Source: Jimgerdemannia flammicorona
Taxonomy: Eukaryota
Direction: 5' to 3'
Assembly: GCA_003990765.1 (NCBI GenBank)
Contig: RBNJ01000018.1
Span: forward strand, 1 to 57,763
DNA length: 57,763 bases
The notes below the pieces were generated by a model. That model saw nothing but the letters and a program-made list of their open reading frames with translations, did not search any database and was not told the DNA's origin. Numbering within the stretch: position 1 is the stretch's first letter; the number at the start of each line of letters is the position of its first letter. The translations under genes were made by a program, and so were the position numbers. Of the stretch, positions 1,915 through 47,533 are shown piece by piece.

Positions 1915-2500
1915 TTTATCTGAATTGACTTATTGAATTTGGTACTAAACTCTAGATATTTCTCAAACTGAAGAATAGTATACTGAACTACTTAAAGACA
2001 ATATCACTCTATTGTTCATCACTCAAATTAGTAATGTTCTCAGAGAATACTTTATAGAGATAGTCAAGAACTTAGAGTCAGATATAGAAAAGAAAGTAAA
2101 GTCTTTTGATAATAATATAGATATAGTTATTAATAAAAAGGCAGACTTATTACTTAGTATTACTGAGAGTAGTTTGTTGATAGATGAGGCATCTGATTTT
2201 ATAGTACTTCTTTAGTTCTTATTAGTAATAGAAGACCTGGAAATATTGAATTCTTCTAAGATATTATTAGACTTTATTTGAGTCTGAGTCTCTAGAGATT
2301 TATATATTAATAGAGAGCAGTTTAGTAGAATTTCATTGATATTCAATAGCTATAAAGATAGTGGCAGTGATTTTGTTCTTGATTTATTCTTAGTATCTTT
2401 GCTGAGTACTTATATTGTAGTAGATTATTATACTTATCTTTATTAGGAGTATTCAAAAGTATAACTGTCTTTTGGAAATTCCATCAGAATTTCTATTATA
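1915..2500 (-). pseudogene. Accessory ORF of family D between chromodomain and PPT (homolog of the LTR-encoded ORFs of families A and B)
   Basis: One minus frame reads KNKITATIFIAI...ELKKYYKIRCLI...IIKRLYFLF...LDYLYKVFSENITNLSDEQ*SDIV, with stops explicable by C->T/G->A; start position approximate. Confidence 0.65.
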
Positions 2501-4515
2501 TCAGATATCTATATCAGATTACTGCTTCTTTTATATTTAACAAAAGGTTATCTTCTTTTTCTCAAATATGTAGTATTATACTCAGGGTATTCTTTCTATT
2601 TCACAAGATAGTACTAGGTGAGTTTGGCAGCTTATTCAAATTATTAGTCTTTATAATCTAAAATATAATTAACTTTATATTTCAGTTCTTGGTAATGATA
2701 ATTAGATCTAAGAGTGATACTATTCTTTCTTTAAAAGTATTTTTAGTATATAGCTAGAGTTAAGATATATGAAACACTGGGTGGATTTTTTTTAAAGTTG
2801 CTGAGAGGTCTAACTTATATATAATAGACTCATACTTCTCTAAGATTTTGAATGGTTTAATGTAGTAAGGTCTGAGTTTCTTCTTTAGTTTTATATTATC
2901 TAGAGTTATATATTATATACTAAGTAATACCTATTCACCTTTTTTATAAGTAACTTCTCTTTTATTTTTATCAGTATATACTACTTGTATTCTTTATACT
3001 TCTATGAGAGTATTATATACTTACTGATAATATCTTATATGATATCAGCAACTTCTTATATTACTAATATTATTATTTATATGACAGTTATAGAAGTTTG
3101 AAGATATTGTTTATAGTTCAGATAAAATAAAGTTATTTTAATACTTGTACTTATACTATTATTATATGCAAATTTGGCTTGAGTCAGTTTTTTATCTCAA
3201 TTATTCTGCTTGTAGCTATAGTAGATACTAAGTATCTGTTTTAGAGTTTGATTAGTTTATTCTATTTAGCTATCTGTCTGTAAGTGATAGATAGTAGATA
3301 TCTTGAGTTATACTTCTAGTTCTTTAAAAAGTGCTTATCAGAAGTTACTTGTAAATTTCACATCTCTATTAGAGATAATTACTAATAGTAATCTATAAAG
3401 ACTAAATACATTGTCAATAAACAATTATTCTATTTCTAGAGTATTATAGTAGTGGTTATTGTAACAAAATAAGTCTGCTTGCTGAGATAATTGATAAAGA
3501 TAATAATTACATCTCTTCTCTTCTCTATTTTTAATAGTTGAATAATAAAGTCCATTCTGATGTAGTCTTAATTTTGGATGAGAATTAGTAGTAGCTATAG
3601 TATTCTAGCTAGAGCTTGGTTGTTAGGCTTGTATCTTTGACAAAAATTATAAGATATAATATAGTTCTTAATGTCTGGGTTGGTAGAAATCTTAAGTAAT
3701 ACATTGATATATCTTGTCAAATTCTATATAACTGACTATAGATATATCATATAATTCTTATAGAATTTATAGGCAGATATTGGTATCAGGAACTCAAATT
3801 CTTGAATTCTCAAGATATATATATTCATTTTGAATAGAAATATTCTTGTATATCTTCTTTATAATATTATTTCCTTTTTTAAGAATTTGCTTGGTAATTT
3901 TTTATATATTGGTATTCTTGGAGTACTCCTTCTTAACTTCTTCAAATAGACTAATAGTAATGTTGATAATTACTATAAGATTACTCTTCTGAGTACTTCA
4001 GGAAAGTACATTAGTTATATTATTCTTGATACTAGTAATGTGCTTGATTTTAATATCAAAGGATACAAGAATCTATATTCATCATGCTTGTCTTTCTATG
4101 AGAATTGATTTTGTCTAAATATATCACAAAGCTTGATGGTCTGTCTATAAGATAAATTTCTTACTGAGGAGAAAATATCTCTATGATTGTAGAGATTAGA
4201 TAATAGCAAGGAGTTCTTTATCTTATATTATATAGTTCTTTTCATACCCATTCTGCTTCTGGAATAGATATGTAACTAGGTGTTCATACTAAGTCAATAT
4301 ACTTCTAATAACAATATTTGAGATATCTATAATAATAGTAAAGGGTCATATAGAGTCTGGACTAATTAGGATTAATATATCAGTCAGTATTTTCTTAAAG
4401 ATATTCATTGCTATAGTGTATTCTTCTGTCTATTATTTTTAATATTAGTACTCTTCTTATAAAGACTTATAAGTAGAGAGGCAATTGCTGAGAATCCTTA
4501 AATAAATCTTCAATA
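2500..4515 (-). pseudogene. pol: Family D pol C-terminal part: RT end, RNase H, integrase, chromodomain
   Basis: Decayed GFSAIAS (RT thumb), RNase H ELLAI-type motif ~4200, integrase core 3150-3550, YKVNYILD...YYLVK*KEY chromodomain ~2520-2690. Confidence 0.8.
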
Positions 4516-11244: not shown

Positions 11245-11257
11245 GGGCTCATAATCT
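11245..11257 (-). promoter_or_regulatory. Copia-type primer binding site (AGATTATGAGCCC, cf. GGTTATGGGCCC)
   Basis: Immediately internal to the LTR at 11259; matches the half-tRNA-iMet PBS typical of Drosophila copia-like elements. Confidence 0.75.
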
Positions 11258-11258
11258 T

Positions 11259-11383
11259 TATTGGAAAGAGGAGTGCTTTTATTGAGTTTATGTAAGATAT
11301 ATATTTCATACATTATTGATAGATGATGTAAAACTGATAAAATCACTAATCATATGTTGATATATTGAGTTACTATCTCAACA
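11259..11383 (-). repeat. 5' LTR of the Copia element
   Basis: TATTGG...CTCAACA termini; last 17 bp repeated at 4516-4532 next to a decayed PPT. Confidence 0.75.
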
Positions 11384-11904
11384 CTTCAGAATAGACTAGT
11401 TATAGATTGCTTTAGCCTTTTTGGAGTCAATAGTAATGCTATTTGCTAAGATAATATAATCTAGATATTTAATTTCCTTCTTGAAAAAGTGATTTTTCTT
11501 CTTTTTATTAAGAGCTTATATCCTCAGAGTATCTCAAAAACCATTTGTAGATATTGTTAGTAGATAGTACTACTTGTACTATATACTAGAATATTATCTA
11601 AGTATACTAGAATGAATACTCTAAGATATTTTTGAAATATATCATTCATTAGTATCTAAAAGATTACTGATATATTAGTAAGTCTAAAAGGTATTATATA
11701 GAATTTGTAATATCTAAATCTTATTCAAAATAATGTCTTTGAAATGTCTTCTTTCTTGATGTGGATTTGGTGATATTTAGATATAAGATTAATAAGTAAA
11801 AATATCTTAGCATTATATACTTAATTGAGTAGTTTATTAATTTATAAGAATATATATTAGTTCTTGACAGATATCTTATTAAGTACTTAGTAATCAATAT
11901 ATAT
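11384..11904 (-). pseudogene. pol: Family D reverse transcriptase core fragment
   Basis: Decayed YLDNILVY (YxDD) ~11590-11610; homologous to 33040-33870. Confidence 0.8.
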
Positions 11905-13482
11905 TATCATGTAGTAGTCACTGAGTCCTTCAAATATGCCAGATTCTCTTCAAGGTGTATCTCTTAGACTAACTCAAGTTTGTTATAAGCAAGTTCTTAT
12001 TGAAGTGTCTTCTCAAGATCTTATAGTCCTCAAACTTCTTATCTTTAAACTGTCTTGTTATCTCTTAGATTACTTACAAGGGATTATATATATTGTATTA
12101 AGAGGAACTGACTTTATTTCAGAAGAAATAAGAGGGGTATTTATATAAAATATAATTCAATGGTTGCTAAGATATAAAGCTAAATATAAATTCCAATAAC
12201 TAAAATAAAATACCAGGACAGGGAAAACTACTAAGTTCCAGTGTCAGTACTAATGGTTGCACAGGTTCATGATACTGGTATAATTTCAGTGATATAGGAA
12301 AATAGTACTGGAATAATTCTGAGTCACCTCAGAATGCTAGTGGTGAAACAGCTGTTATATAGAAAAAGAGTGCTGGCATTATTCAGTGTAACCAAGAGAC
12401 TTAGAGCAGAATATTCAAGATCATAGGGGCTTCATCCTCATCAGAGGTCAGGATGTCTTCAAAGGAGATGAGGTCTGCGAATGTCTCATCTGTCTTATCA
12501 TTATCATCATATAGGTCATGCATTTCATATATGTTACACAGGATGATATCATTGCTGATGATGGTATCATGTTTGGTGGCAGTGGGAACAAGGAGGTCTG
12601 GAGCTCTCCAGTTTATGAAATTCTCTTCCATGAAATAGGGGACAAATGTGGGGTCTTGGAGAGGCCTAATCTAGATACTTGGGCCTTGGAATACCAAGAT
12701 CAATCCTTACAGGAATTGGTCTGGGTTGTCCTGGAGGATGGGATGCCAGAAGTCTTCTACTTCATCACTATTGAGAGTAATAGTGAACTGGGCTTCTGTA
12801 GCCACTCTGGCTTCTAGTACATTGATATGGCAGGCTAACAGATCTCTGAAATCTGAGACTCTAACATACTCTAAGTTGGAGATTGACTATGGTGCATGCC
12901 TGAAGATCTGATGGATCTTCTTAGCTGTCCTTGCTTCACATATATCCATGAGAGTGGTATCTTGTAACTCTTGGGGGCTGGTCTGTAGGAACTCCTAGCA
13001 GAGGAGATTTCCTATCTCATACTCCTGCCACATTTGGAGGTATTCAGTAGCAATGGTGATCCTTGTTTCCATTTCACAGCAGTAGAGGATATGATGATAA
13101 GAGTCACCAGTATCCAGGTTGACACTAGGAGTCCTTTTTGAGTGAGTCCTCATGGCTCTTCTGATGTCTTAGAATATTCTTTCTTTAACTGAGGTGTCTT
13201 GGTGATTCCTTGACCTTGAGGTTTGGTGGGCAGCAGGCATTTTGTTTGTGATAAGTCTTTGAGCTATTTTGGAGTTGGTGGGTCTTATTGGTTGCTGCTA
13301 CTGTAGTTTCTTGATCCTTCTTTTATATTCCTCAAGATACCCATACTGTGGTCACAATGACTCACAGTTGGTCATAATTGCTCATCTTTTATACTATATG
13401 ATCTTCTTGTGCTCTGATCTGGTGACTTACAAGAAAAGGCTGTCTTCTGTACTGATGTCATCATTCTGGGGTCACTATTACA
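11905..13482 (-). mobile_element. Solo LTR of family A (copy A1) containing the accessory ORF
   Basis: Full-length match to 38188-39763; TGTAAT...ATGATA termini on minus; 4-bp TSD ATAT (11901-11904, 13483-13486); decayed ORF 13464->12401. Confidence 0.92.
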
Positions 13483-16837: not shown

Positions 16838-16896
16838 AGTAGGTTCCTTGAGGGAAGCTTACTTGTGGATGAGAGTAGCTTCTACTGTTACTAAAT

Positions 16897-17372
16897 TATA
16901 ATAAAACTATATATTAATAGAATTAATATATTATAGATAATTAAGATGACTATTAGCCCTAAGTTCTGAGTTTTTATAAGGAAGCACTAAGTTTCAATTG
17001 TCTGTTACAGTGGTATAGTTCAGGTATCATTTTTGAATTCTTGTATTGATAGAGATACTATACTTATATCTCAAGTTGATCAGACTCAGAATTGTTAATA
17101 AGTTATTCTAAGAGTTCTTAATAAGAATACTGCTTTATTCTTATATTCAGAGAAAGTAGAGCTAAGATTATAATATACTTAGTACAGAGGGTATTTATAT
17201 AGATTTAAAGTTATAACTAAATATAATATGTTAGATATATTTATATACAGTTATACTATATATAGTATTTATAACTACTCTTTGGAATTTTCATTGGAAT
17301 TTTCTTTGGAATTTCTGCTGAAATTTCTGTTGGAAATTTCAGTAGCTTGTTGGTATATAATGAATCATTATA
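16897..17372 (-). repeat. 5' LTR of family D element
   Basis: Direct-repeat partner of 1430-1903; decayed TGGTAGCAG-type PBS immediately internal. Confidence 0.8.
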
Positions 17373-21550: not shown

Positions 21551-22644
21551 GTTGGATTGGCTGAAAGGACAGGGTTAAGTGTAAAATGATGGATTCAAGT
21601 TGTTTCAGACTAGACTGGAAGGGTTTATGTTGGACATTTTTAGTCTGTGGACCCTTGATGATGTATGAATGGTCCTCTAGATTCAAAACTATGAATAGGG
21701 TAACCTTTAATTGCGGGGAAATAATGCCGTGACTGTTTAATAACAATAAATTAATCACACCCCGCTCAAAAACTGTCACGCCAAAATATGCGTGCTCAGG
21801 TGCCCTCAGCAGTAAGAGAACAGATTCGTTTATTAGACATTAATGATCTGGACAAAGGAGCTACAAATTGTTGGAGTGGCTTTTCAAAACCTTTCCCTGA
21901 AGACACTGCTCAATCAAAAACAATCTTGTGTCCAAATCATTGTTGGGCTTCATTTGGGTCAGGGCTTTCAGAGATTTGTATGTTGACAGAGGGTGGTTCA
22001 GTAGAGGTCCATTGGCATTTGATAGTCATAAGGATGGCTGTGGCAATCTTGTTCTTAGTTTGCTCTTAGTACTATTAATAGTTATTTATATTATAGAGAG
22101 TTATCTATATAATATTCAGAGATATTTATACTTATCTTGTCAGAGGTATGACTGTCTTTGGAAATTCTATTGAAATTTCTGTTATACTATATATTTATAT
22201 CAGACTACTGCTTCTATATTTAATAGGTGATTATCTTCTTTTTTTCAAATAATATCATATTTAGAGTAATTTTTTTATTTTACCAGATAGTACTAGATGA
22301 GCTTGGCAGCTTGTCTGAATTGTCAGTCCTTGTGATCTATAATATAATTGACTTTATATTCCAGTTCTTAATTGATAATAATCAGATCCAAAAATAGTAT
22401 AATTATTTCTTTAAAGATATTTGGGATATATAGCTAAAGTTAAAATATATAGAATACTAGATGAATTCTTCTGAGAATTACTAGAAGGTCTAATTTATAT
22501 GCAACAGGACTGTATTTCTTAAATAGTCCAATATAGTAGGGTCTGAGCTTCTTCTTTAGTTCTATTATCTAGAGTTAGATATTACATACTGAGTAATATA
22601 TATTTATCTTTTTTATAAGTAACTTCTCTTTTATTTTTGTCTAT

Positions 22645-24200
22645 TGTCACATAGTAGTTACTGAGTCCTTCAAATATGTCAGATTCTCTTCAAGGTATAT
22701 CTCTTAGACTAACCACAAGTTTGTTATAAGTAAGTTCTTATTGGAGTGTCTTTCCAAGATCTTATAGTCCTCAAACTTCTTATCTTTAAACTGTCTTGTT
22801 ATCTCTTAGATTGCTTGCAAGGAATTGAAGATAAGTGAACTTGACTGACTTTATTTCAAAGGAAATAAGAGAGGTATTTATATAAAATATAATTCAATGG
22901 TTGCTAAGTTATAAAGCTAAATATGAATTCCAATAACTAAATAAAATACTGGAACACAGAAAACTATAGTTGTCTATACAACTGGTTACATAAGTTTAGG
23001 ATGTCAGTAAAATTTTAATAGTACAGGAAAAGGATACTAGAAGAATTTCTAAGTTATATAAGATCAGAATGCCAGAAGAATAACAGTTATACAGGAAAAG
23101 GATACTGGTAGAATCTGATGTTACCAAGAACTTAAAGCAGAATATTCAGAACTATGGGGGCTTCATCCTCATCATTACTAAAGGAGATGAGATCTACAAA
23201 TATTTCATCCATTTCTCATACTTTGTGTATCTTGTATATGTTGTGCAGGATGATATCATTGCTGATGACATTATCATGTTCAGCAGCAGAGAGAACAAGG
23301 AGGTCTGAGGCTCTCTAATCTATGACATTCTCTTCTACAAAATAAGAAACAAATGTGGGGTCCTAGAGAGGTCTAACCTAGATACTGGGATCTTGGAATG
23401 CTGAGATCAATTGTTGTAGGAATTGATCAGAATTATTCTTGAAGATAGGATTCCAGAACTCTCCTATCTCATCACTATTGAGGGTGATAGTAGACTGGGC
23501 TTCTGTAGCCATCATGGCCTCTAGTGTATTGATGCAGAAAGCTGATAGTTTCTTGAAGTCTGAGATTCTAGTGTACTTCAAGTTGGGGATCAACAATAGT
23601 GCATATCTGAAGACTTGATGAATCTTCTTTACTATTCTTATTTCTCATATATCCATGGGAGTAGCATCTTATATTTCTTGGTAACTGGTCTGAGGGAATT
23701 TCCAGCAGAGGAGGTTTCCTATTTCATACTCCTGCTATATCCAGAGGTATTCAGTAGTGATGGTGATCCTTATTTCCATTTTATGGCAGTAGAGAATATA
23801 ATGATAGGGGTCATCAGTACCCAGGTTGACACTAGGAGTCCTTCTTGTATAGGTCCTCATAGCTCTTCTGATGTCTTGGAATATCCTATCCTAAACTGAG
23901 GGACTTTGGTAGTTCCTAGATCTTGAGGTTTGGTGAGTAGCAGACATTTTGTTTATAGTAAGTCTTTAAAACTATTTCTGTAAGCTTTGTTTGGATTGCT
24001 GCTACTGCAGTTCCTTGATCCTTCTTTTATATTTCTCGAGATGTCTGTCTTATAGTTACAATGACTCATAGTTGGTCATTATTACTTATCTTGTAGCTTG
24101 GATGAGTCATGCCATATGACCTTTCTGTGCTCCAATCTGGTAGCTTATAAGGAAAGACTGTCTTCTGTGCTGATGTCATTATTCTGAGGTCACTGTTACA
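22645..24200 (-). repeat. 3' LTR of A2 (contains decayed accessory ORF ~24182->23132)
   Basis: TGTAAC...GTGACA termini; ORF-track fragment LIPNLKYTRISDFKKLS. Confidence 0.92.
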
Positions 24201-29865: not shown

Positions 29866-31425
29866 TGTCATATAATAGTCGCTGAGTTCTTCAAATATAT
29901 CAGATTCTCTTCAAGATATATCTCTTAGACTAACCACAAGTTTGTTATAAGCAAGTTCTTATTGGAGTGCCTTCCCAAGGTCTTATAGTTCTCAAAATTC
30001 TTATCTTTAAACTGTCTTATTATCTCTTAGATTGCTTGTAAGAAATTGAGAGTAAGTGAACTTGACTGACTTTATTTCAAAGGAAATAAGAGAGGTATTT
30101 ATACAAAATATAATTCAATGGTTGCTAAGTTATAAAGCTAAATATAAATTCCAATAACCAAATAAAATACTAGAACACAGAAAACTATAATTGTCTGTAT
30201 AAATAGTCACATAAGTTTAGGATATCAGTAGAATTTTAGTGGTATAGGAAAAGGATACCAGAAGAATTTCTGGGTTATACAAGATCAGAATGCCAGAAGA
30301 ATAACAGTTATACAGGAAAAGGATGCTGGTAGAATCTGGTATTACCAAGAACTTAAAGCAAAATATTCAGAACTATGGAGGATTCATTCTTATCATCACT
30401 GAAGGAGATGAGATCTACAAATATTTCATCTGTTTCTTGTACTTTGTGCATCTCATATATGTTGTGTGGGATGACATCATTGCTGATGATGCTATCACAT
30501 TCAGCAGCAGGGAGAATAAGGAGGTCTGGGACTCTCCAATCTATGACATTCTTTTCTACAAAATAAGAAACAAATGTGAGGTCCTGGAGAGGTCTAATCT
30601 GGATGCTGGGACCTTGAAATACTGAGATCCATTGTTGTAGAAATTGATCAGAATTATCCTTGAGGATAGGATTCCAGAACTCTCCTACCTCATCACTGTT
30701 GAGGGTGATAGTAGACTGGGCTTTTGTGGCCACTATGGCCTCCAGTCCATTAGTGCAGTAAGCTGATAGTTCCTTGAAGTCTGAGATCCTAGTATACTCT
30801 AAGTTGGGGATTGACCATGGTGCATGTCTGAAGATCTGATGAATCTTCTTTACTGTTCTTATTTCTTATACATTTATGAGAGTTGTATCTTGTATTTCTT
30901 GGTAACTAGTCTGAGAGAATTCCAGACAGAGGAGGTTTCCTATTTCATACTCCTGCCACATCCAGATGCATTCAGTAGTAATAGTGATCCTTGTTTCTAT
31001 TTTATAGCAGTAGAGAATATAATGATAGGAGTCACCAGTACTCAGATTGATACTAGGAGTCCTGCTTATATGGGTCCTCATATATAGCCCTTCTGATGTC
31101 TTGGAACATCCTATTCTAGACTGAGGGGCCTTAGTGATTCCTGGACCTTGAGGTTTGGTGAGTGACAGGTATTTTGTTTATAGTAAGTCTTTAGAACTAT
31201 TTCTATAAGTTTTGTTTAGATTGCTGCTACTGTAGTTTCTTGATCCTTCTTTTATATTCTTCAAGATATCTGTCTTATAGTCACAATGACTCATAGTTGA
31301 TCATCATTGCTCATCTTGTAGTCTGGATGAGTCATGCCATATAATCTTCCTATACTCTGATCTGGTGGCTTGTAAGGAAATACTATCTTCTGTGCTGATG
31401 TCATTATTCTGAGGTTACCATTATA
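29866..31425 (-). repeat. 5' LTR of A2 (accessory ORF fragments 31081-30866 and 30733-30353)
   Basis: Colinear with 22645-24200; differences mostly transitions. Confidence 0.92.
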
Positions 31426-33348
31426 CCATATATATATAGCTTATATTCTTTATACTTCTATAAGAGAATTTTATGCTTACTGGATATTATCTTATATAAT
31501 ATTAATAATTTCTTATATAGTCAGTATTATAGCTCATATAATAGCTATAGAGGTTTAAGAGTATTATATATAGTTTAAGTAGAATGAGGTTATTTTAATA
31601 CTTATACTTATACTATTATTGTATATGAACTCAGCTAAGGTCAGTTTTCATCCCAATTATTTTGCTTTTAGTTATAATAGATACTAAGTATCTTCTTTAG
31701 AATTTAGTTGATTTTTTCTATTTAGCTGTCTATCTGTAGATAATAGATAATAGATATCTTGAGTTATACTCCTAAATCTTTGAAGAGTGCTTGTCAGAAA
31801 TTACTTATAATTTTACATCTCTATCAGAGACAATTACTAATAGTAATTCATAGAGATGAAATACACTATTAATAAAAAGTTGTATTATTTCTGAGGCTAT
31901 TATAGTAATGATAGTTATGGTGAAATAGGCTTGCTTACTGAAGTAATATACATATAAAGATAATAATTATATCTCTTTTCTTCTTAGTCTTTAGTAGCTA
32001 GATAATAAATCCATTCTAATATGATCTTAGTTTTGAGTAGATATTAGTAGTTACTGCAATGTTTTGGCTAATACTTGATTGCTAGATTGTATCTTCAGCA
32101 GATATTATAGAATATAATATAGTTCTTGATCTCAGCTATTATTTTAGATCAGTAAAAATCTTTAGCAATATGTTAGTATATTGAATTAAATCTCATATAT
32201 CTGACTATAGATATATTATATGGTTCTTATAGAATTTGTAAGTAGATAGAGTATTGAAAATCCAAATTCATATGTATATTATTAAGATATATATATTCAT
32301 TTTAGATGAAAAAATTCTTATATATCTTCTTTATAATATTACTTCCTTTCTTAAAGATTTGTTTGACAATTTCTTATATATTTATATCTTTGATATACTC
32401 TTTCTTAACTTCTTCAAATAGATTGATAACAATATTGCTAATTACTATAAAGTCATTCTTCTGAGTACTTCAGAAAAGTATATCAGCTATTTTATTCTTA
32501 ATACTGACAATATACTTAATCTTAACATCAAAAAGTATAAGGGTTTATATTCATCATATTTATCTTTCTATAAGGATTGATTGTGTCTGGATATATCAAA
32601 GAGCTTTATAGTCTGTTCAGAGAGTAAACCTTTTGTCAAGAAGGAAATATTACTATATTTATAGTAATCAGATAATAGTAATAAGTTTTTTATCTTATTT
32701 ATATAGTTCTTCTAATACTTATTTAATTTCTGAGATAGATATATAACTGGGTATTTATGTTGAGTTAAAAAAGCTCTAATGGTAATTTTTGAAGTATTAA
32801 TAGTGATCACAAAGAGTTTTGTAAGATTAGAGCTATCAGGATTAGTGTGTCAGACAGCATTCTCTTAAGAGTATTTATAGCTATGGTATATTCTTCAGTT
32901 TATTCTTTTTTGATATTAGTTCCTTTTTAAAAAGACTTGTAAGTAGAGAGGTGATTGCTGAAAATCTCTGAATAAATCTTTTATAATATCTAGCTAATCT
33001 ATTAAATCCTTATAGAGACTTAAGGAGTTTCAGTATAGATTGTTTTAGTTTTCTTTAGATCAATAGCAATACTATTTACTGAAATGATATATGTATCCTA
33101 AGTATTCAATTTCCTTCTTGAAGAAATAATATTTCTTTCATTTTGCTAAGAGCTTATTTTTATAAAGTATATCAAAAACTATTTATAGATATTGTTAGTA
33201 GATAATATTACTTATACTGTATACTAGAATATCATTTAGATATACTAGAATGAATACTTTAAGATATTTCTGAAATATATCATTCATTAATATCTGAAAG
33301 ATTGCTGATATATTATTAGTGAGACTGAATAGTATCATATAAATTTAT

Positions 33349-33684
33349 CCCTTAGGTTGTAAAGCAGGCAAATATGCCTGCAAAAATTATGATACTTATA
33401 TATTTTAGCTAATATTTATTTTATTAAATTTTAAATTATTGTTTTACTTATTATAACAATTGTATTTTTTTATTTATAATTAGAATATACCAAATTTGGA
33501 AATTATTTTTTTATGTTTGTTATAATTTTTTTATATATAAATTATTTAGTAAAACTTTATTTTACCTTTTTTAGAAATTGTAAAAATAATATATATTATT
33601 ATAGATATTATGGTTGATTATATTTTAGCAGACAAATTTGCCTGCATCTTTAAATTTGACTTCGTTTTTCTTACAGATCATGGG
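33349..33684. mobile_element. 336-bp non-autonomous DNA element with CCC...GGG ends (CMC/EnSpm-like MITE)
   Basis: Interrupts D2 RT; AT duplicated on both sides; imperfect TIR CCCTTAGGTTGTAA / CCCATGATCTGTAA; subterminal palindrome GCAGGCAAATATGCCTGC near each end. Confidence 0.65.
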
Positions 33685-35301
33685 ATAATATCCAATCTTG
33701 TTTGAAATGCAAGCTTTGAGATATCTTCTTCTTAATGTAAATTTAGTAATATCTAAAAGTAAGATTAATAAGTAAAAAAGTCTTAGTATTATACATTTAG
33801 TCAAGAATATTATTAATCTATAGGAGTATATATATATTAGTTCTTAATAGAGATCTTGTTAAGTATTATATATATTATAACAGTGATCTCAGAATGGTGA
33901 CATCATTACAGAAGACAGCCTTTCCTTACAAGCTACCAGATTAGAGTATAAGAAGATCATATGGCATGACTTATTCAGGCTACAAGATGAGTAATGATGA
34001 TAAATCATAAGTTATGATGGCCACAAGATAGATATCTCAAGGAATATAAAAGAAGAACCAGGAAACTGCAGTAGTAGCAACTCAAACAAGACTCACAAAA
34101 TCCTGAAATAGTTTGAAAGACTCACTATAAACAAAATATCTATTACTTGCCAAATCTTAAGATCTAGAAACTACTAAAGCTTCTCAGTCTAAGAAAGAAT
34201 ATTCTAAGACATTTAGAGAGCTATGAGAAACTACACCAGAAGGATTCCTAGTCTCAATCTGGGTACTGGTGACTCTTACCACTTTATCCTCTATTACCAT
34301 AAAATGAAGACAAAGATCACTACTGCTACTAAATGCCTCTAGATGTGACAGGAATATTAAATAGGAAACCTTTTCTGCTGAGAATTCCCTTAGACCAATC
34401 TCCAAGAGATATAAGATGTTACCCCTATAGATGTATATAAATTGAGAGTAGCCAAAAAGATCCATCAGATCTTCAGGCATATACCTTAATCAATCCCCAA
34501 CTTAGAGTATACCAGAGTCTCAGACTTCAAGGAATTGTCAGCCCACTACACAGATGCACTAGAGGCCATAGTGGCCATAGAAGCCCAATTCATTATCACT
34601 CTCAAAAGTAATAAGGTAGAAGAGTTCTAGAATCCCATTCTCTAGAATAATCTAGATCAATTTCTGCAAAGATTGATCTCAGTATTCCAAGACCTTAGTA
34701 TTCAGATCAGACCCTCTCAAGATTCCACCTTTGTCTCCTACTTTGTAGAGGAAAACATCACAGATTGGAGAGCCCCTGATCTCCTTACCACTGCTACCAA
34801 ATAGGATAATATTATCAGTAATGATATCATCCCATTAATCAACCTGTACAAAATATATGAAATAAATAAAATACTTACAGAAACATTCACTGATCTTATT
34901 TTCTTTGAAGACATTCTGTCCCCAACCTCTAGCCTTAATGATAGTGATGAAAATAAAGCCCCCAGAATTTTGAACATTTTACTCTAATTTATTTATATAA
35001 CTATTTGTTTGAATACTCAAATATTCTGGCATTCTGACCTCTTATAACTGTCAGAAATTATTCTAATATTCTGATCTTATATAACCAATTGTATAAGCAC
35101 TTGAATTTGTACTTACAACCTGAAGTTTCCTATGTTTAAATATCTTATTTAGTTATTAGATTTTATATTTAGCTTTATATCTTAGCAACTATTAAATTAT
35201 AGTCTGTATAAATACCCCTGTCATTTTCTTTAAAATAAAGTCAGTATTAAAAAATTCAAGCATATAAGTATCCAACTACTCAAGAGCACAAAAGTTCTAG
35301 T

Positions 35302-37363
35302 TATAAGGGTACAACCTCCAAGCCACTGAAATCACATGTTACTCTCAGAACAAATCCAGAAATCATATGCAAAATTACAAAGCTAAGTTAAACCAAAGTC
35401 ACAGAACACAAAGCTGAGTCAACTCAAAGTCATAGAATATAAGATTTATACAAATGGAATCTTACCAATCAGGACCAAATGTATATATACCAAGTACTCA
35501 GATGTGTCAAAATAGAGAACTACAACAAACCAAACAAACAACCACAACTCTCAAATATATATACAACCATGACCACTGAGATCTACAACTGCATCTGTAC
35601 TGACATTTAGAATACTATTATCAACTGAGCCACATCTCTCCTGCCTCTCATGAACATTCATAGCCTGGTACCTCTCTACTTTGTGGAAGTCTGATGGAAT
35701 GCCCTGAACATGCTCAGTGAAGCCTATTAAATTGGACAAATCTTAAGCTACTACCAGATTGGCTACCTCCTAGAAGATATGATTGAACACCACTATGATA
35801 CAGACATTACTCAGATATCTCAATACTAGAAACTAATTACCTGCAAACACCAGAAACTCTTTTATAAGTACAGTACCTTTATTCTCTACCTCTGAGTTAC
35901 TACTGCTAAAATGGTTGCCACTCTGTCCTATAGCCAAATCAATGATATGGTACAAGAACTCAACCACAAGTATATTGAGTATATTCAAACTACTGATAGA
36001 ATCTTTCTGTATCCCAATGACTATATCCTGCAAATACCCCAAGTTGGATATACTATGAAGGATATCTATGATATAATCTAGTTTGATAATGATGAAGCAG
36101 AAGATAACAATCCCTCTGATGCTGACATGATCTCTAGCCAAGGATCACTGCTAGCCCTAATCATCCTGCCAACCTTACTAATGAACTTATAATAGTTCAT
36201 TACTATCTATAAGACCTATTGGGATAATGATCATTGGTACAAGTACCAACCTGCATTCATACCCAACTACTTTAACTACAATGAAGAGATCAGAGAATAC
36301 AACCTATATCTCCAGACAATCCTCAAGACTGAACCAACAACCCTACCTCTCAAGTATATACAAAATGAGCCACAACTACTAGTATACTACAACCCTACAA
36401 CTCATAGCACTGTAACTTATAGAAGATATACAGATAGCAAATTCAATGAAAGAGAAAATGATGTACCCCTCCTTTACTCACTAACTCTATATCCAATATA
36501 TGAGACAGATGATACTATCCTGTAGGATGGTAATATGATCTCAATGTATTATTATCTGAGCAAATAGAGAGAAATAATTCAAGAACTACTCTTCCTAGAT
36601 AACTACTTCATCAGAGATGATATCATCAATGGTAATGTCATTGAAGACTACCTAGACAGTGTCTAAATCTATAGAAAGCTTAGCAATTATTAGTATAGTT
36701 AGATTAGTCTTATATGATATAACTGTATACTGACTCAGCAGTCAGACAATCTCTTGATATGTCAGTTCACACTTATACTACATAACTGCATTCTGACTCA
36801 GCAAGACACTAAGTACTATATCCATATTTTGCACAGTCCAGATAGCCTCTCATTAGTATATATTTCCCCTCTCCCAAACCTCAGAATCTCAGACTAAAAC
36901 AGACTTAAACAGATGAAAATAATCCAAACATAACTTCTGAATACTTCTCTACAATATCTCTTCACACAACTATTCCTAGTATAGTAATATTATGAATAGT
37001 AAATAAATCTATTTAATAACTCACAAATCACTCTTAAGTAAACATATACTCTGTTAGATCTCACTTTTAACCATATTATGAAATTTCCTAATTGGGTATT
37101 GTCTACAGTGATATGCTAATTCAACTAAGCTGTTCTTAATTTCTTGAACTTTCTGAAATACAGAAAATCCTATACATCCAGAACAAGTCCAAAAAAGAAC
37201 TTTAATTGCGATATCAATCTGATCTTAAAATCAATAAGTATAGAGAATATACTTCATATAAAATTGATCTTGGTCTAAAGAAAATAGTCTTCCAGAATAT
37301 CCAGAAACTTCCAGAAAACCCTTCCAGAACTACATAATGGTACTTTTATAGTACTCTCTTACA
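35302..37363 (+). repeat. 5' LTR of element B
   Basis: TATAAG...CTTACA; colinear with 45483-47533. Confidence 0.9.
35569..36700 (+). pseudogene. Accessory ORF inside LTR-B (second copy from 45750)
   Basis: One frame reads MTTEIYNCICTDI*N...SYYQIGYLLEDM...KHQKLFYKY...MVATLSYSQINDMVQEL...YWDNDHWYKYQPAFIPNYF for >300 codons; several stops are sense codons in the other LTR; end approximate. Confidence 0.7.
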
Positions 37364-38205
37364 ACTTGGTAGTAGTAGTTTACAATCTAATTTCACTTCA
37401 AGATACTTCCTCACTCTGCTATAAACCTCTATGAGAATTCCTATAAGTTAGTATAAAGCCCAACCTCTGAACTGGAATTTATCCCAAACTATCTGACAAT
37501 CTGGAGAAAATTGAATCTGATATATAATGACAATTTGACCTCCACACCTGCAACAAGTGAGACAGACTTTATCTGCAAAAAGAAATACTCTAACTAAATC
37601 AGCAGATAGGCAAAACTCAATATACTAAACTTCTTGCTCTATACCCTGCTAGTCAAGATGAAGAAGGTCTTATAGAAGTCTTTTTTACTTTTCTCAATAA
37701 GAGTTTTGTTAGCTCTACAAATCCAAGTGATCTAGGATAACCAGCAATCAATTTTCTAGCCTTAGTTCCTCATAAAGCCTGAGCCTCCATAACCAAGTAG
37801 CTCAACTCTACTGACTATTACTATACCAGGACTAAGACTGTCTTATACTACCATTTTCAGAATTGCAAGGCCTGTCATATTCTTAAAGAAGAAGCCAGAG
37901 AAACCCTTTGTCAACAACCTGATCCCAAACCAGAAGCAGGTTCAGCTTCAGCCCTACCTGAAGCTGAGATTTATATAGAACTAGATCAAACTCTTAAATT
38001 AAGTCCATCTAAAATCTGTTATACAACTAATACTATCTACTTTAATGCTGAACAAACCAAATTACACAGGGACCAAAGTGAAGAGGAGGAGGAGTATCTC
38101 AGTGAATTTGATCCCAGATACACTACTGAAGGAGACACACCTCTATCAGGACAAAATATACCTATACAGCAACAGATAGTTATCTATTATAACGGTGACC
38201 CCAGA

Positions 38206-39279
38206 ATGATGACATCAGCACAGGAGACAGCCTTTCCTTGCAAGCCACCAGATCGAAGCACAAAAAAGATCATATGGCATATGAGATGAGCAATGATGAC
38301 CAACTGTGAGTCATTGTGACCACAGCACAAGCATCCTGAAGAATATAAAAGAAGGATCAAGGAACCACAGTAGCAGCAACCAACAAGAACCACCAATCCC
38401 AAAATAGCTCAAAGACTTACCACAAACGAAATGCCTGCTGCCTGCCAAACCTCAAGGTCAAGGAACCACCAAGGTATCTCAGTCAAGGAAAGGATGTTCC
38501 AAGACATCAGAAGAGCCATGGGGACCCGCTCAAGAAGGACTCCTAGTGTCAACCTGGGAACTGCAGACCCCTATCACTTTATGCTCTACCACCGTGAAAT
38601 GGAAACAAGGATCACCATTGCCACCGAATGCCTCCAAATGTGGCAGGAGTACAAAATAGGAAACCTCCTCTGCCGGGAGTTCCCAGAAGCCAGCACCCAA
38701 GAGCTACAAGATGCCACCCCCATGGACCTACGTGAAATAAGGACAGCTAAGAAGATCCATCAGATCTTCAGGCATGCACCATGGTCGATCCCCAACTTGG
38801 AGTATGTTAGAGTCTCAGACTTCAGAGACCTGTCATCCTGCCGTATCAATGCACTAGAAGCCAGGGTAGCTACAGAAGCCTAGTCCACCATCACCCTCAA
38901 TAGCGAAGAAGTAGAAGACTTCTGGCACCCCATCCTTCAGGACAACCCAGACCAATTCCTGCAAGGATTGATCTCAGTATTCCAAGGCCCAAGCATCTGG
39001 GTTAGATCTCCCCAAGACCCCACATTTGTTCCCTATTTTGTGGAAGAGAACCTCATAGACTGGAGAGCTCCAGATCTCCTTGTTCCCGATTTTCCCGCCA
39101 CTGCCAAACGTGATGACGTCATCGGCGATGACATCATCCCGCGCGACATCAAAGCACGCGAAAATGACGAAGTATGCAAGACGCGCGGCCTGCATGATGA
39201 ATTCACGGATCTCATCTCCTTCAGTGATGATGATGATGATGAGGATGAAGCCCCCATGATCCTGAACTTTTTGCTCTAA
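38206..39279 (+). pseudogene. LTR-A accessory ORF, 357 codons, acidic C-terminal tail, four in-frame stops
   Basis: ATG 38206 and ORF-track pieces 38431-38883 and 38968-39279 are all in one frame. Stops are TGA, TGA, TAG, TAG (from CGA/CAG); TAG 38881 is CAG/CAA in other copies. Confidence 0.85.
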
Positions 39280-39286
39280 GTTCTTT

Positions 39287-39388
39287 GTTACACTGGATAA
39301 TGCCAGCACCGGTATTCTCATGTAACACTGGATAATGCCAGCACCAGTATTCTCATGTAACACTGGATAATGCCAGCACCGGTATTCT
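39287..39388 (+). repeat. Three tandem 35-bp repeats in U3 of LTR-A5
   Basis: GTAACACTGGATAATGCCAGCACCGGTATTCTCAT units at 39287, 39322, 39357. Confidence 0.9.
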
Positions 39389-39522
39389 GAGGTGATGCGA
39401 AATTGTTCCAGTACTGGTATTTTGATATGACACTAAATAATACCAGCCTTGGAACTTAGTAGTTTTAGTTATTGGAGTTTATATTTAGCTTTATATCTTA
39501 GCAACCATTGAATTATATTTTG

Positions 39523-39554
39523 TATAAATACCCCTCTTATTTCCTCGAAATAAA
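39523..39554 (+). promoter_or_regulatory. Putative TATA box and AATAAA signal of LTR-A
   Basis: TATAAATA ~39523 and AATAAA ~39549, conserved at the same place in all five LTR-A copies. Confidence 0.6.
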
Positions 39555-39905
39555 GTCAGTTCCTCTCAGTGCAATATACACAATTCCTTGCAAGCAATCT
39601 AAGAGATAACAAGACAGTTTAAAGATAAGAAGTTTGAGGACTATAAGACCTTGGGAAGGCACTCCAATAAGAACTTGCTTATAACAAACTTGTAGTTAGT
39701 CTAAGAGATATACCTTGAAGAGAATCTGGTGTATTTGAAGGACTCAGCGACCACTACATGACACTATCAAGCTCTTACTCCAGATCCACAACAGTTACTC
39801 CAGCAACTTACACAGACTCAAAGAACACCACCACACTCTGCACTAGTATCTCAAGTTGTATCAATAACTCTATTACTAGTAGTTCAACTGCCTCCAGTAA
39901 ACAAC

Positions 39906-42900: not shown

Positions 42901-45040
42901 TAAGGAATGGCCCAGACTCAAGAAGCTGAAAGACCTCTAGTCATTCCTAGGACTAGCAAACTATTACCAGTGATTTGTTACAAACTTTGCCAAGACCACT
43001 ACTGCCCTTACTTAAATGACCAAGCATAGTAAGAAAGAAGAACAGCCCTGGACTACAAAACAAGAAAAAGACTTCAACAATCTTATAAATTAGAGACCTA
43101 AACAAGATATAGCCTTTCAAGTACTGAAAGATACCTTGATAACTACTCCAATACTTTAAGCAGCAAATCCTGCCCTACTATATGAAGTTATTACTAATGT
43201 CTCTTACCTAGCTCTTAGAGTAGTACTTATACAAGAAGGACACCCTGTGGCCTACCACTCTCAAATATTCAATGATACCAAAATCAACTATACAACTCAT
43301 GAGAAGGAAATGTTAGTCATCATAGATACCCTGATCAAATAGTGACCATATCTAGAAGGAGCATACTTTACTGTATTGATAGACTACAAATTATTAGTCA
43401 ACATCAAGACTCAGGCTACTCTTTCTCAAAAGCAAGCCTGATAGATGAAAGTTCTCACCAACTTTAACTATAAAATCCAGTATTGCTCTGATAAGAAGAA
43501 TATTATTGCTGATGCAATCTCCAGACCACCAATTGAAGAGATTATCCAAACTCTTATCTTGGTTATCAAATCTATTATAGAATAAATTATTGCAGCATAT
43601 GCTGATAATAAAGAAGCTCAAGCACTCTGCAAAATCCTAAACAGTAATAGTATTGATAAGTATACTTGATATCACTAATATCAACTAAAGAACAATGCTA
43701 TCTACTATAAGAACAGATTATATATTCCTAACAATCAAGATCTCTGAAGGACTATTCTATTTAAATGTTATAATGTACCTACAGCCAGATATTTAGGATT
43801 CAATAAATGCTATGAAGTTATTTCCTAAAACTTCTATTAGCTCTATATGGCAGATTAGTTAAAGACCTATATTACTTCCTATGATACCTACCAATGCAAC
43901 AAGTTCTCAATTAGCAAAAACTGGCCTACTCCACTCTATTCCAGTACTATCCACTAATTGGAAACAAATCTCTATAGACTTTATTATACAACTACCCCAA
44001 ACCAAGAATGAGAAAGATGTAATTGTTATATTTGCGGACTATCTCAGAAAACAAGCCCACTTTGTGTCAACTACTACTACTGCAACAGCACCAGATATAG
44101 CCACACTCTTGTTTGACAATATCTTTCACTATCATGGTCTTTCCAAGATCATTATTAGTGACTGAGATCTGAAATTCACCAGCAATTTTTGGAAAGCCCT
44201 CTATGCATACCTTGGAATGAAACTGGCACTATCTATAGCCTTCTATCCTGAAACTGATAGTCAAATAGAAAGAATGAACTGAAATATGAAGCAAATGCTA
44301 AGGAACTATATTTCCTATAGATAAGATGATTGATATGAACACCTTACTGCAGTTGAGTTTGTCTACAACAACAGTAAGCAAGTCTCTCTTAGAATGACTC
44401 TATTCTTTATCAATATAAGACAAAATCTGAACACCTATCTGACACTTATCAGAACTACCAATAAACTCTCTATCATAGAAGCCATTGAAGAATTTCTACT
44501 CTGAATGCACAACTTAAGCCAGATTGCAATCAAGAATTTATTCCAAGCTCAAGAACAATAGTTATAATATATCAACCAGTACTGCCAAGAAGAAGCTTTT
44601 GACCTTGGAGAAAAAGTTCTACTAGATATCCAAGGATACTGAGTTGATAACCTCAAGTATAGACCATTGATGAAGCTGAACAGTAAATTTATTGGACCAT
44701 TCAAAGTCATTGTATAAGTCTCTCCAACTTTCTACAAATTGGCACTATCAGATACCATTAAGATTCATCCAATCTTTAATGTCTAATATTTCAAGCAATA
44801 CAATGAAAACAATGACAAGCTATTTCTGAACTAAACTACAAAACCACCTGCATCTGTCATTATTAATGACTAAGAAGAATATAAAGTTAAACAAATCCTC
44901 AACAAATGTGGTCACAAGAACTATCCCAAATATCTTATCAAATGGAAAGGTTATCCAATCCATGATATAATATGGGAACTCAAGACCAATCTTCAGAATG
45001 CTACTGACTTAGTTCAAGAATATGATTCTTTGAACAACTA
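39906..45040 (+). pseudogene. pol: Family B gag-dUTPase-PR-RT-RH-IN-chromodomain
   Basis: YFYCQKTEHMASVCP knuckle ~40850; dUTPase ~40970-41380 (EGGVINEDYTG, GSRGFGSS); IDSSASDNF protease ~41650; YIDDILVF ~42700; ISIDFIIQLP, IGPFKV; YLIKWKGYP chromodomain ~44930. Confidence 0.9.
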
Positions 45041-45482
45041 AAACCAGAACACTCCAGTGCCTACCAGTCTATACTATATAATATCTCTTCTGAATATCAA
45101 GTACCCTTATAATTATCATAAATAAAATTAAGAATTTAGCAAGTTAAGATAAAAGAATACTGACTCTTTAGAAAAATAGCAAAACTAAAAGCCAAGCTAT
45201 TCTCCCCATACCACTGGTGAGAAACAAGACATAGATATTTAAGAAGATTCCTTAGAGAAAATTCTCCAGCAATGAATAATGTCTGAATTACTTCCAGCAC
45301 ACAGTATTAAATACATGACCCTTTAATATATAAATTCAATATATTAGACAACTGAACTATGAGCATGCCACTTCTGAGAAAAATAGATACTACTGGACTT
45401 TTGACAATCTAAATAGTGTAATAATACTAGAACAAAATTAGAAAATCTTGATGAGGACATCAAAAGCTAAGAAGGAGAGAGT

Positions 45483-47533
45483 TGTAAGTATACAATCTCT
45501 AAGCTACTAAAATCACACATCACCCTCAGAACAAATCTGAAAATCATATGCAAGATTATAAAACTGAGTTAAACTGAAGTTACAAAATACAAAGCTGAGT
45601 CAACTCAAAGTCACAGAATACAAGATTTACACAAATGGAACCTTATCAATCAGGACCAAATATATATATACTGAGTACTCAGATATGTCAAAATAGAGAA
45701 TTACAACAAATCAAACAAATAACCATAACTCTCAAATATATACACAACCATGACCACTGAGATCTACAACTACATCTATACTGACATTTGGAATGCTATT
45801 GTCAACCAAGCCACACCTTCTCTATCTCTCATGAACATCCATAGCCTAGCACCCCTCTACTTCATGGAAGTCTGATAGAATGCTCTGAACATACTCAGTG
45901 AAGTCTATCAAATTAAACAAATCTCAAGCTACTACCAGATCAGCTGCCTTCTAGAAGATATGGTTGAACATTACCATGACACAGATATTACTCAGATGTC
46001 TCAACACTAGAAACTCATTGCCTGCAAACACTGGGAACTCTTTTACCTTTATTCCCCACCTCCAAGTTACTATTGCTGAAATGGTTACCACTCTGTCCTA
46101 TGGCCAAAATTGATGATATATTACAAGAACTCAATCATAAGTATATTGAGTATATTTAAACTACCAACAGAACCTTCCCATACCCTAATGACCATATCCT
46201 ACAAATGCCTCAAGTTGGATATATAATGAAGGACATCTATAATATAATTCAGTTCAATAATGATGAAGCAGAAGATAGTGATCCCTCTGATGCCAATATG
46301 ACCTCTAGCTAAGGATCACTACCAGCTCTGATCACCCTACCAACCTTGTCAATAAACTATAATAGTTCATAACTATCTATGAGACCTATTGGGATAATGA
46401 CCACTGGCATGAATACTAACCTACATTTATGCCTAACTACTTCAACTACAATGAAGAGACTGGAGAATATAACCTATATCTCCAGACAACTCTCAAGACC
46501 AAACCAATAACTTTACCTCCTAAGTATATACAAAATGAGATATAACCACCAGTATACTATAATCTCCCAACTCATAGTACCATAACTTATAGAAGATATA
46601 TAGACAGTAAATCTGATAAAAGTGAAAATGATGCACCCTTCCTTCCCACCAACTTCATACTCAGTATATGAGACAGATGATGCTATCCTATAGAATGGTA
46701 ATATGATCTCAATGTATTATTATCTGAGCAAACAGAGAGAAGTAATTCAAGAACTACTCTTCCTAGATGACTACTTTATCAGAGATAATGTCATCAATGG
46801 TGATATCATTGAAGACTACCCAGACAGCATCTAAATCTATAGATAGCTTAGCAGTCATTAGTATAGTTAGATTAGTCTCATATAATATAACTATATACTA
46901 ACTCAGCAATCAGACAATCTCTTAATATATCAGTTCACACTTATACTATATGACTGTATTCTGACTCAGTGAGGTGCTAAGTGCTACATCTATATTTAGT
47001 ATAGTTCAGATAGCCTCCCATTAGTATAAATATTCCTTCTTCCAGACCTCAGAATCTCAGATTAAAACAGACTTGAACAGATAAGAATAATCTGAACACA
47101 ACTTCTGAATACTTCTCTATAATATCTCTTCATACAACTACTCCTAGTATAGCAATATCATGAATAATGAATAAACTCATTTAATAATCCACAAACTACT
47201 CTTAAGTAAACCTATACTCTATTAGGTCTCACTCCTAACCATATTATGAAATTTTCTAATTGAATATTATCTGCAGCAATATACTAATTCAACTAAGCTG
47301 ATCTTAGTTTCTTGAACTTTCTAAAATATAGAAAATCCTAAACATTCAGAACAAGTCCAAAAAAGGACTTTGGTTGAGATATCAATCTGATCTTAAAATC
47401 AATAAGTATAGAGAATATACTATATATGAATTTGATCTTGGCCTAAAGAAAATAATCTTTCAGAATATCCAGAAACTTCCAGAAAACTCTTCCAGAACTA
47501 CATAACAGTACTTTTATAAGTAACTCTCTTACA
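45483..47533 (+). repeat. 3' LTR of element B
   Basis: TGTAAG...CTTACA directly after the PPT. Confidence 0.9.

Follow-up and report, generated by a model that had tools for sequence, protein, structure and literature searches.

Can a long terminal repeat (LTR) of a fungal retrotransposon carry a protein-coding gene of its own, and is such a gene held in common by element families that are otherwise only distantly related? This question is raised by a 57,763-nucleotide stretch of Jimgerdemannia flammicorona DNA (GenBank assembly GCA_003990765.1, contig RBNJ01000018.1, positions 1 to 57,763 of the forward strand; the window throughout), which is a nest of decayed LTR retrotransposons with a GC content of 0.23-0.44. 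A first-pass annotation made from the sequence by itself had proposed that one unannotated accessory protein family is carried at the 3' end of three different Gypsy lineages, designated here A, B and D. We find that the gene lies inside the LTR of A and of B, and that its carriers comprise two, probably three, distantly related Gypsy-type elements, with D as the probable third. The features on which this account is built are collected in Table 1.

The gene is most easily read in the least mutated copy of LTR-A. It had initially been located at 38206-39279, a frame of 358 codons with three internal stops and a terminal stop. An open reading frame (ORF) is indeed present there, but its conserved start is the methionine of an MPA.. 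sequence at 38431 and not position 38206. Two metagenomic sequences, L001 and L002, contain uninterrupted ORFs (323 and 291 codons), each beginning with MPA.., and L002, whose protein is only 43% identical to the A protein, has in-frame stops just upstream of this methionine; the conserved A protein is therefore encoded by 38431-39279. The set of intact A relatives comprises P0001-P0008 together with the ORFs of L001 and L002. A word-based search recovered four of these among 597 candidates (58-86% identical), the A1 profile found only five clusters among 1.84 billion representative proteins, and a metagenome scan matched 146 stretches, two of which (L001 and L002) were confirmed. Among the profiles built during this work, A2, A5 and A6 held mis-framed or decayed rows, and A2 and A6 were dropped. 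Within the window, a six-frame scan with the A profiles as ordinary hidden Markov models (HMMs) gave matches limited to the five LTR-A copies. The single internal stop of the window copy results from a T at base 38881, which is C in all four sequencing runs aligned to LTR-A. The A frames stay open across lineages that are 41-62% identical, and the ratio of nonsynonymous to synonymous substitution rates (dN/dS), a check that the first-pass annotation had called for, was 0.25, 0.34 and 0.15 among the window copy, L001 and L002, with dS saturated; values of 0.15-0.34 indicate frames under selection. An antisense ORF over the acidic tail of the A protein was not found to be conserved (E=3.9).

LTR-B carries its gene as one frame in the 5' copy, with frame breaks in the 3' copy. 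A search with both LTR-B copies yielded two intact relatives among 385 candidates. P0009 corresponds to the N-terminal half of B (70% identical) and has the same MTTEIYN start, and P0010 corresponds to the C-terminal part (56% identical). Both of the B starts given earlier, 35569 and 45750, were confirmed, but the frame does not end where it had been thought to end, at LLMNL followed by two stops: P0010 reads DLQQ where the window has NL and the two stops, and continues for ~160 residues, so the B ORF extends from 35569 to 36666. The resemblance of LLMNL to the end of the A protein, ILNFLL, is thus no sign of a common terminus. At the level of sequence evolution, the A and B frames are shown by these comparisons to be real genes under selection.

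The A and B genes are found at the same place in their LTRs. The start codon lies 241 nt into LTR-A and ~268 nt into LTR-B, and the distance from an upstream TATA box to the ATG is 87 nt in both. In A this box, GAATATAAAAG, is retained by L001 and by all five copies in the window; in L002, CTATAAAAG stands 80 nt ahead of the ATG, and the LTR terminus TGACCCC.GAA is preserved 223 nt ahead of it. Downstream, a spacer of ~190-245 nt separates the ORF stop from a second, main TATA motif, TATAAATAyCCC(C)TCT, which is common to LTR-A, LTR-B and D. A promoter TATA box followed by AATAAA is the usual LTR arrangement of promoter and poly(A) signal. LTR-A ends at 39763 and in the other copies is followed by ACT TGGTGCCC; its 5' boundary is uncertain by a few bases, since contigs of sequencing runs depart at 38190, a TG occurs at 38196, and 38181-38189 are partly common to copies in unlike contexts. 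The proposed order of these LTRs is therefore a TATA box, an ATG 87 nt on, an ORF of 280-365 codons, the spacer and the main TATA motif, and the terminal region of D probably holds a complete small sense gene as well. Transcription from the first TATA box would give an accessory-protein mRNA of ~1.2 kb ending at the LTR's own poly(A) site, and the second TATA box would drive the genomic RNA. The earlier placement of the gene at the 3' end of the elements accordingly needs amendment: the gene has its own TATA box and is located inside the LTR, in U3 on the motif layout, and is therefore duplicated at both element ends and retained by solo LTRs.

Table 1. Coordinates of the elements, LTRs, reading frames and promoter motifs in the window.
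Feature	Position	Strand	Remarks
LTR-A copies (~1.57 kb)	11901-13489(-), 22642-24200(-), 29865-31434(-), 33869-35245(+), 38190-39763(+)		tail 47543-47734; self-blastn
LTR-A, least mutated copy	38190..39763	+	1574 bp, GC 0.45, inside element B; ends from contigs of three runs departing at 38190 and 39763/39764
TATA box 1 (TATAAAAG)	38344..38351	+	87 nt upstream of A ATG; proposed promoter of LTR-borne gene
Conserved leader AAGACTyACyAyAAACrAA	38408..38430	+	directly 5' of ATG; 15 invariant columns in 7 sequences including L002
A-family accessory ORF	38431..39279	+	282 codons, one internal stop (TAG at 38881), ends ..ILNFLL and stop
Tandem repeat, 35 bp, 2.9 copies	39286..39388	+	between ORF stop and main TATA; Tandem Repeats Finder, 95% matches
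TATA box 2 (TATAAATACCCCTCT) and AATAAA (39549) 19 nt behind	39523..39554	+	proposed genomic-RNA promoter and poly(A) signal
A ORF copy in 5' LTR-A of element A(+)	34199..34984	+	hmmsearch with A1 profile, 331.8 bits
A ORF copy in LTR-A 11901-13489	12404..13177	-	hmmsearch, 393 bits
A ORF copy in 3' LTR (22642-24200) of element A(-)	23135..23884	-	hmmsearch, 345.7 bits
A ORF copy in 5' LTR (29865-31434) of element A(-)	30359..31081	-	hmmsearch, 354.4 bits
LTR-B 5' copy	35299..37363	+	~2.06 kb; followed by ACT TGGTAG.., primer-binding-site-like
LTR-B 3' copy	45480..47533	+	85% identical to 5' copy; preceded by purine tract AAGAAGGAGAGAG
TATA-like box of LTR-B (TATATATA)	35482..35489	+	87 nt upstream of B start codon; alignment of two LTR-B copies
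B-family accessory ORF	35569..36666	+	one frame, ~365 codons, 11 internal stops
B ORF copy in 3' LTR	45750..46834	+	frame breaks: 11-bp deletion ~46044, extra base ~46108, 1-bp deletion near 46358
LTR-B main TATA motif (TATATATTTCCCCTC; 3' copy TATAAATATTCCTTC)	36857..36871	+	190 nt behind B stop
D1 reading frame as tested	1916..2401	-	very decayed; local GC ~0.25-0.32
D1 core	1991..2203	-	codons 67-137 of frame 2401->1916; aligns to A columns 73-137, B columns 83-130
D2, start of same frame	21939..22068	-	D homology breaks at 21939, resumes 17348
D main TATA motif (TATATAAATATTCCC; D2 copy TATAAATACCCTCTG within 17140-17220, minus strand)	1726..1735	-	~250 nt behind D core
Complete element A(-)	22642-31434	-	LTRs 88% identical; sits inside a D copy
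Element A(+)	begins 33869	+	5' LTR (33869-35245) interrupted by element B, tail 47543-47734
Element B	35299-47533	+	LTR-B ~2.06 kb, copies 85% identical
Family D copy 1	11885..11401 then 4510..1420	-	only 3' two-thirds; Copia element between parts
Family D copy 2	33865..31435, 22641..21939, 17348..16888	-	only 3' two-thirds
Element E	53467-57763, runs off window end	+	nearly intact Gypsy, long open frames

The A and B proteins are homologous over their N-terminal ~125 residues, a conclusion that draws on profile and pairwise comparisons. The A8 profile matched the natural B protein P0009 at 19.5 bits (profile positions 19-140, residues 7-126), a score that none of 5000 shuffles attained (the highest was 9.7); reversal of the sequence gave -0.5. 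The shallower A3 profile gave 16.7 bits (0 of 3000 shuffles, best 12.6), and the rise from 16.7 to 19.5 bits with the better profile is as homology predicts. Alignment of the two profiles with hhalign, as the first-pass annotation had suggested, gave P=0.0068 and then P=0.0037 (124 columns) over 123-124 columns in an unchanged register, and Smith-Waterman alignments of P0009 with six A members (p=0.026, 0.0049, 0.0011, 0.0034, 0.57 and 0.00013) all fell in one register. The domain is ~16-26% identical between A and B and has the common core Y.IG.LL ... A.K.H..F ... IP.L ... LS...I(D/N). The third and fourth of the motif blocks that had originally been put forward (Y.IG.LL; A.K.H..F, IP.L and.LS) lie inside statistically supported A-B, D-A and D-B alignments.

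Several results weigh against this homology or limit its extent. The hhalign probabilities for A and B are only 5.6-9.0%, and the reciprocal scores of the B profile with P0002, P0005, P0007 and P0004 were equalled by 268, 33, 7 and 3 of 1000 shuffles, respectively. A search of the 1.84 billion representatives with the A profile returned zero B proteins at E<=0.001, so the A-B link is to be read as a planned single comparison and not as significance on the scale of a database. The C-terminal part of B scored 1.2 bits against the A profile, equalled by 240 of 3000 shuffles, and a counterpart in B of the best conserved half of A (residues ~140-215) was not detected. Outside the N-terminal domain, A and B appear to have diverged beyond recognition. 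The proposal of one protein family across A, B and D therefore holds for the N-terminal domain of A and B but does not extend to likeness over the whole length.

The elements that carry these genes were mapped by self-blastn and by Pfam searches of read-through frames. Between the LTR-B pair, the pol region of element B contains dUTPase, RVT_1, RT_RNaseH, Integrase_H2C2, SH3_Tf2-1 and Chromo (E=3.5e-8) domains; element A has an LTR pair with RVT, RNaseH and rve, and family D, from which the 5' half is absent, has RNaseH and SH3_Tf2-1 only. LTR pairs around reverse transcriptase (RT), RNase H and integrase, in this order and with a C-terminal chromodomain, characterize the Ty3/Gypsy chromoviruses, and this arrangement was found here with B showing the full set; among A, B and D, a Chromo domain is reported for B only. 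On a rough inspection of target duplications, element B has a plausible one of 5 bp, TCAGT, and no clear one was seen for A. A dUTPase is present in A, B and E alike. Identities between read-through pol frames (tblastx) were 31-33% for the RT of A and B, 47% for the RT of B and E, and 40-44% for the integrase of D and B, and these low values indicate that the carriers are distinct families. LTR-A and LTR-B have zero blastn similarity, and the statement that A and B belong to clearly different families is upheld. Element E encodes a Ty3 capsid, dUTPase, protease, RT, RNase H and an integrase zinc finger. Its 5' LTR and leader fit in ~510 bp, which is too short for an LTR-borne gene.

Family D presents a more difficult case. 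The two regions assigned to it earlier, 2500->1915 and 22080->21931, were borne out, but the first of these (D1) has 23 stops in 195 codons when read from 2500, and of the second (D2) only the first ~46 codons are left before the break in homology at 21939. We compared these remnants with A and B using a log-odds model that assigns a probability r to the change of every ancestral C or G into T or A, and judged the scores against real control windows. At r=0.5, D1 scored 23.4 bits against A (0 of 1000 shuffles; 0 of 806 control windows, best 19.9) and 18.7 bits against B (4 of 1000 shuffles; 0 of 806 control windows). At r=0.3 the scores were 22.7 bits for A (1 of 1000; 0 of 1610) and 20.7 bits for B (6 of 1000; 0 of 1610), and at r=0.7 they were 22.9 bits for A (0 of 1000; 0 of 1610) and 16.7 bits for B (6 of 1000; 6 of 1610). 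A positive control, B in its decayed form from the window, scored 18.8 bits against the A profile, equalled by 4 of 806 control windows. Traceback aligned D1 codons 67-130 with A columns 73-137 and D1 codons 90-137 with B columns 83-130, from which an A-B offset of 14 columns follows; an equal offset is seen when A and B are aligned directly. Blocks 1 and 2, which had been claimed for D as KNKIATAILMTI and PPSVNI..PDP, did not hold up: for A, the D2 score was equalled in 186 of 1000 cases by shuffles and in 203 of 1736 by control windows, and for B in 26 of 1000 and 87 of 1736, respectively. An earlier transition-aware score, which took the best possible ancestral residue for each codon and gave z=4.9 for D against A, was dropped because z reached 5.03 and 4.04 among 60 random control segments, both values coming from a single stretch that contains a 27-base A run.

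It could be argued from these data that D is no member of the family and resembles A and B by chance, in a stretch that is extremely AT-rich and ridden with stops. The ordinary HMM comparisons speak for this and against membership, as the score of the A profile with D was equalled by 585, 581 and 710 of 3000 shuffles and that of the B profile with a D2+D1 composite by 21 of 3000; hhalign was likewise not significant (P=0.42 and 0.12), blocks 1 and 2 are not significant, none of 25 candidates proved to be an intact D relative, and control z values of up to 5.0 show how such scores can mislead. Chance is nonetheless an unlikely explanation in our judgement, since, for each of the three values of r, the D1 score with A lies above every control window (806-1610 of them) and that with B lies above every control at r=0.3 and 0.5 (six of 1610 reach it at r=0.7), its register is transitive with the A-B alignment, and the stretch stands in the expected place ahead of the shared TATA motif. 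We therefore regard D as probably the third member of the accessory family; the support for this comes from a single, heavily decayed copy, scored with a substitution-aware scheme devised for the purpose. A different objection concerns the history of the family. The first-pass annotation had allowed for a gene swapped between lineages, and the accessory domain may have moved horizontally among unrelated Gypsy lineages, through recombination or through template switching. Its distribution is patchy, in that E, whose RT resembles that of B more closely (47%) than the RT of A does (31-33%), has no room for the ORF, and ORF3 genes are shared among unlike retroelements in bdelloid rotifers (PMC5408684). 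The lack of room in E does mean that loss or exchange occurred, but loss in E accounts for the patchiness equally well, and the identities are distorted by C-to-T decay. The depth of divergence in the domain, at least equal to that in pol (~16-26% identity), also speaks against exchange, and the common position within the LTR, TATA-to-ATG spacing and main TATA motif are what one ancestral LTR predicts. With accessory domain and pol both deeply diverged, we found no evidence in support of swapping and consider it distinctly improbable; descent of the A, B and D architecture from one ancestral LTR would explain the data at least as well.

The surroundings of these elements have further features. 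Both D copies end at one point in the RT domain and there abut a complete LTR-A end (11885/11901 and 33865/33869), once in each orientation, and such junctions would call for either two separate insertion events at a shared site or the rearrangement of a single ancestral configuration. Against the RT of B and E, the D pieces at 11401-11885 and at 33034-33865 gave matches of ~61%. D copy 1 is interrupted between its RT and RNase H parts by a Ty1/Copia element (4511-11400, minus strand; gag, integrase and RVT_2, E=4.9e-51). In D copy 2, 372 bp are replaced by ~4.6 kb of unlike, GC-richer sequence (17349-21938), in which there are 81 consecutive T bases (20812-20892) and in which 20411-20694 forms an inverted repeat with 21574-21264. 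A dUTPase domain at 14614-14989 on the minus strand (E=9.9e-12), ~1.1-1.5 kb from the LTR-A at 11901-13489, suggests that one more Gypsy element, with an internal deletion, lies between this LTR and the tail of D2. Finally, LTR-A is broken after ..AAAGTCAGT, and the ~55 bases from there to LTR-B (35246-35301) are unlike either element.

The decay of these sequences has a definite character. Transitions account for 293 of the 369 differences between the LTR-B copies, and CpG is almost gone from the old LTR copies. C-to-T change in LTR-A and LTR-B is nearly saturated at CpG (22/22 and 20/21), alike at CpA and CpC (0.13-0.29) and lower at CpT (0.04-0.14). Classic repeat-induced point mutation (RIP) gives a pattern dominated by CpA; this context was rejected because CpA is not dominant over CpC and CpG is strongest. 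The pattern points to methylation-linked deamination rather than RIP of the Neurospora type. Where copies are riddled with C-to-T changes in this manner, routine annotation would miss such genes.

What the encoded proteins might do was approached through their composition and predicted structure. The A and B proteins matched zero Pfam families at E<=1, one chance-level match apart, and a sequence search of the PDB gave none at E<=10, in agreement with the earlier remark that the domain has no name. A membrane segment was not found in the A proteins P0002, L001, L002 and P0007, and the highest 19-residue Kyte-Doolittle mean was 0.47-0.97 in six proteins; the view that the gene is not env-like and lacks a transmembrane segment is supported by these maxima below 1.0. 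Three of four A proteins (P0002, L001 and L002) combine a basic N-terminus (7-10 K+R versus 2-3 D+E in the first 45 residues) with a strongly acidic, disordered C-terminal tail (19-21 D+E in the last 70 residues), and in P0007 the corresponding counts are near neutral (4 versus 3) and 12. A hydrophobic ..P..LNF.(L/I) sequence is found in P0002, L001 and P0007 and forms the end of P0001-P0003; L002 has the similar PWVLNFLN. An AlphaFold2 model of A, which is weak, is helical over residues 18-149, with a hairpin at 200-212, and its tail (217-271) falls below 50 in the predicted local distance difference test (pLDDT). The description of the protein as probably helical thus fits the shared A/B N-terminal domain, which is mostly helical in this weak model. 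Searches with the low-confidence model gave no Foldseek match in the PDB at E<=0.001, and with VIA wide the best Z was 4.2, with MarR-type regulators at Z 2.4-3.0, in the range of noise. The protein atlas returned nothing usable for P0002 (best score 0.83; its own model pLDDT 0.35).

The earlier suggestion of a trans-activator or anti-silencing factor goes beyond these observations. The conserved first TATA box, the basic N-terminus (in three of four A proteins), the acidic tail and the 35-bp repeats are compatible with a trans-activator, and because of this layout and composition the product may tentatively be regarded as a putative nuclear regulator of the element, which would act on the repeats and promoter downstream of its gene. 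We hold this assignment of function to be doubtful, and the poor quality of the AlphaFold2 model (pLDDT 53, predicted template modelling score 0.44), which is without a fold match, counts against it. The gene-cassette description of the LTRs is a separate matter and is, in our estimation, moderately probable. It has to be weighed against a layout in which the first TATA box is the main promoter and the genomic RNA begins with the ORF as its first cistron, a leader ORF in a very long R/U5 of ~1.2 kb that may be likened to ORF0/ORF1 of plant Tat/Ogre-type elements. Within the A family, no non-coding parts are better conserved than the first TATA box and the leader, and, to the detriment of the cassette description, the transcription start, the poly(A) site and thus the U3 boundary are deduced from motifs and not fixed by RNA; the sequencing runs listed as containing these sequences include no RNA and are mostly soil metagenomes, and contigs of four runs on LTR-A gave no transcript start, end or splicing signal. 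Against a leader ORF stands the second TATA motif, conserved in A, B and D and followed by AATAAA in A, and a transcript begun at the first TATA box of the 5' LTR would meet that AATAAA ~1.15 kb on and so mostly end there, which makes this layout quite improbable to our mind. Still less credible is the notion that the ORFs are passengers that do nothing for the element, being either captured fragments of host genes or remnants in decay. Relatives outside the narrow family were not found among the 1.84 billion representatives, open frames persist across lineages of 41-62% identity (dN/dS 0.15-0.34), and start codon, leader and TATA box are all conserved; we consider this notion very unlikely indeed.

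Genes in comparable positions are known from other systems. The superantigen gene sag of mouse mammary tumour virus (MMTV), a vertebrate retrovirus, is an ORF in the U3 region of the LTR that encodes a type II membrane glycoprotein. The A and B genes resemble sag as sense ORFs inside the LTR, and thus present in both LTRs and at the 3' end of the genomic RNA. They are placed upstream of the main TATA box and AATAAA and would lie in U3 on a boundary set from these motifs. They differ in that their proteins have neither a membrane segment nor a Pfam match and that the carriers are env-less Gypsy elements of the chromodomain type. Among viral regulators, foamy virus Tas/Bel1 has an internal promoter and Tax of human T-cell leukaemia virus (HTLV) acts on repeated U3 elements. 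A proposed separate promoter, an acidic C-terminus (in three of four A proteins) and short tandem repeats upstream of the main promoter recall these proteins, but the analogy is one of layout only, since no sequence or fold similarity was found and gene and proposed promoter are both inside the LTR here.

Among retrotransposons, the closest parallels concern additional ORFs outside the LTR. According to PMC3485330, ORF0 of the plant Gypsy elements Retrosat2, RIRE3 and RIRE8 lies between the 5' LTR and gag-pol and diverges far faster than ORF1 (similarity of 30-34% versus 69-70%). It is likewise an unnamed, fast-evolving extra ORF in related families with unusually long LTRs, but it is located outside the LTR and belongs to a plant lineage. 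The ORF3 genes of bdelloid rotifers are common to diverse retroelements, several of them with a dUTPase, as PMC5408684 reports, and so offer a case of one accessory ORF type in several LTR-retrotransposon lineages. According to that source, they are recognisable enzymes or env-like, lie between pol and the 3' LTR and were apparently acquired, whereas the A and B genes are unnamed and LTR-internal and may be inherited. The full-text literature searched, a body outside which most subscription journals lie, describes no LTR-internal ORF in fungal retrotransposons, and the available portion of a fungal LTR survey (PMC3248453) mentions no accessory ORF. The elements crapaud (PMC10787394) and Candida Tca5 (PMC4139406) and those of Dictyostelium (PMC5006619) were considered and, as far as the available portions of these sources go, are not relevant as precedents. 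The interior of an LTR is an unusual place for a retrotransposon gene.

Accessory genes separate the complex retroviruses from simple retrotransposons, and to our knowledge few accessory retroelement genes are known outside animals and plants. The gene described here is conserved, selected and embedded in the LTR with a proposed promoter of its own, and is common to deeply diverged Gypsy families. If this account is true, LTRs, including solo LTRs, would be protein-coding units and not only regulatory DNA, and would provide a handle on the ways in which elements control their own expression or evade silencing. A broader and rather unlikely extension is that the LTR is a self-contained cassette, such that each LTR, solo copies included, expresses a fast-evolving nuclear factor that acts in trans on LTR promoters or against host silencing for a guild of related chromoviruses. 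In that event, thousands of solo LTRs would remain active sources of protein, and the shared N-terminal domain would represent the contact with a common host or element target.

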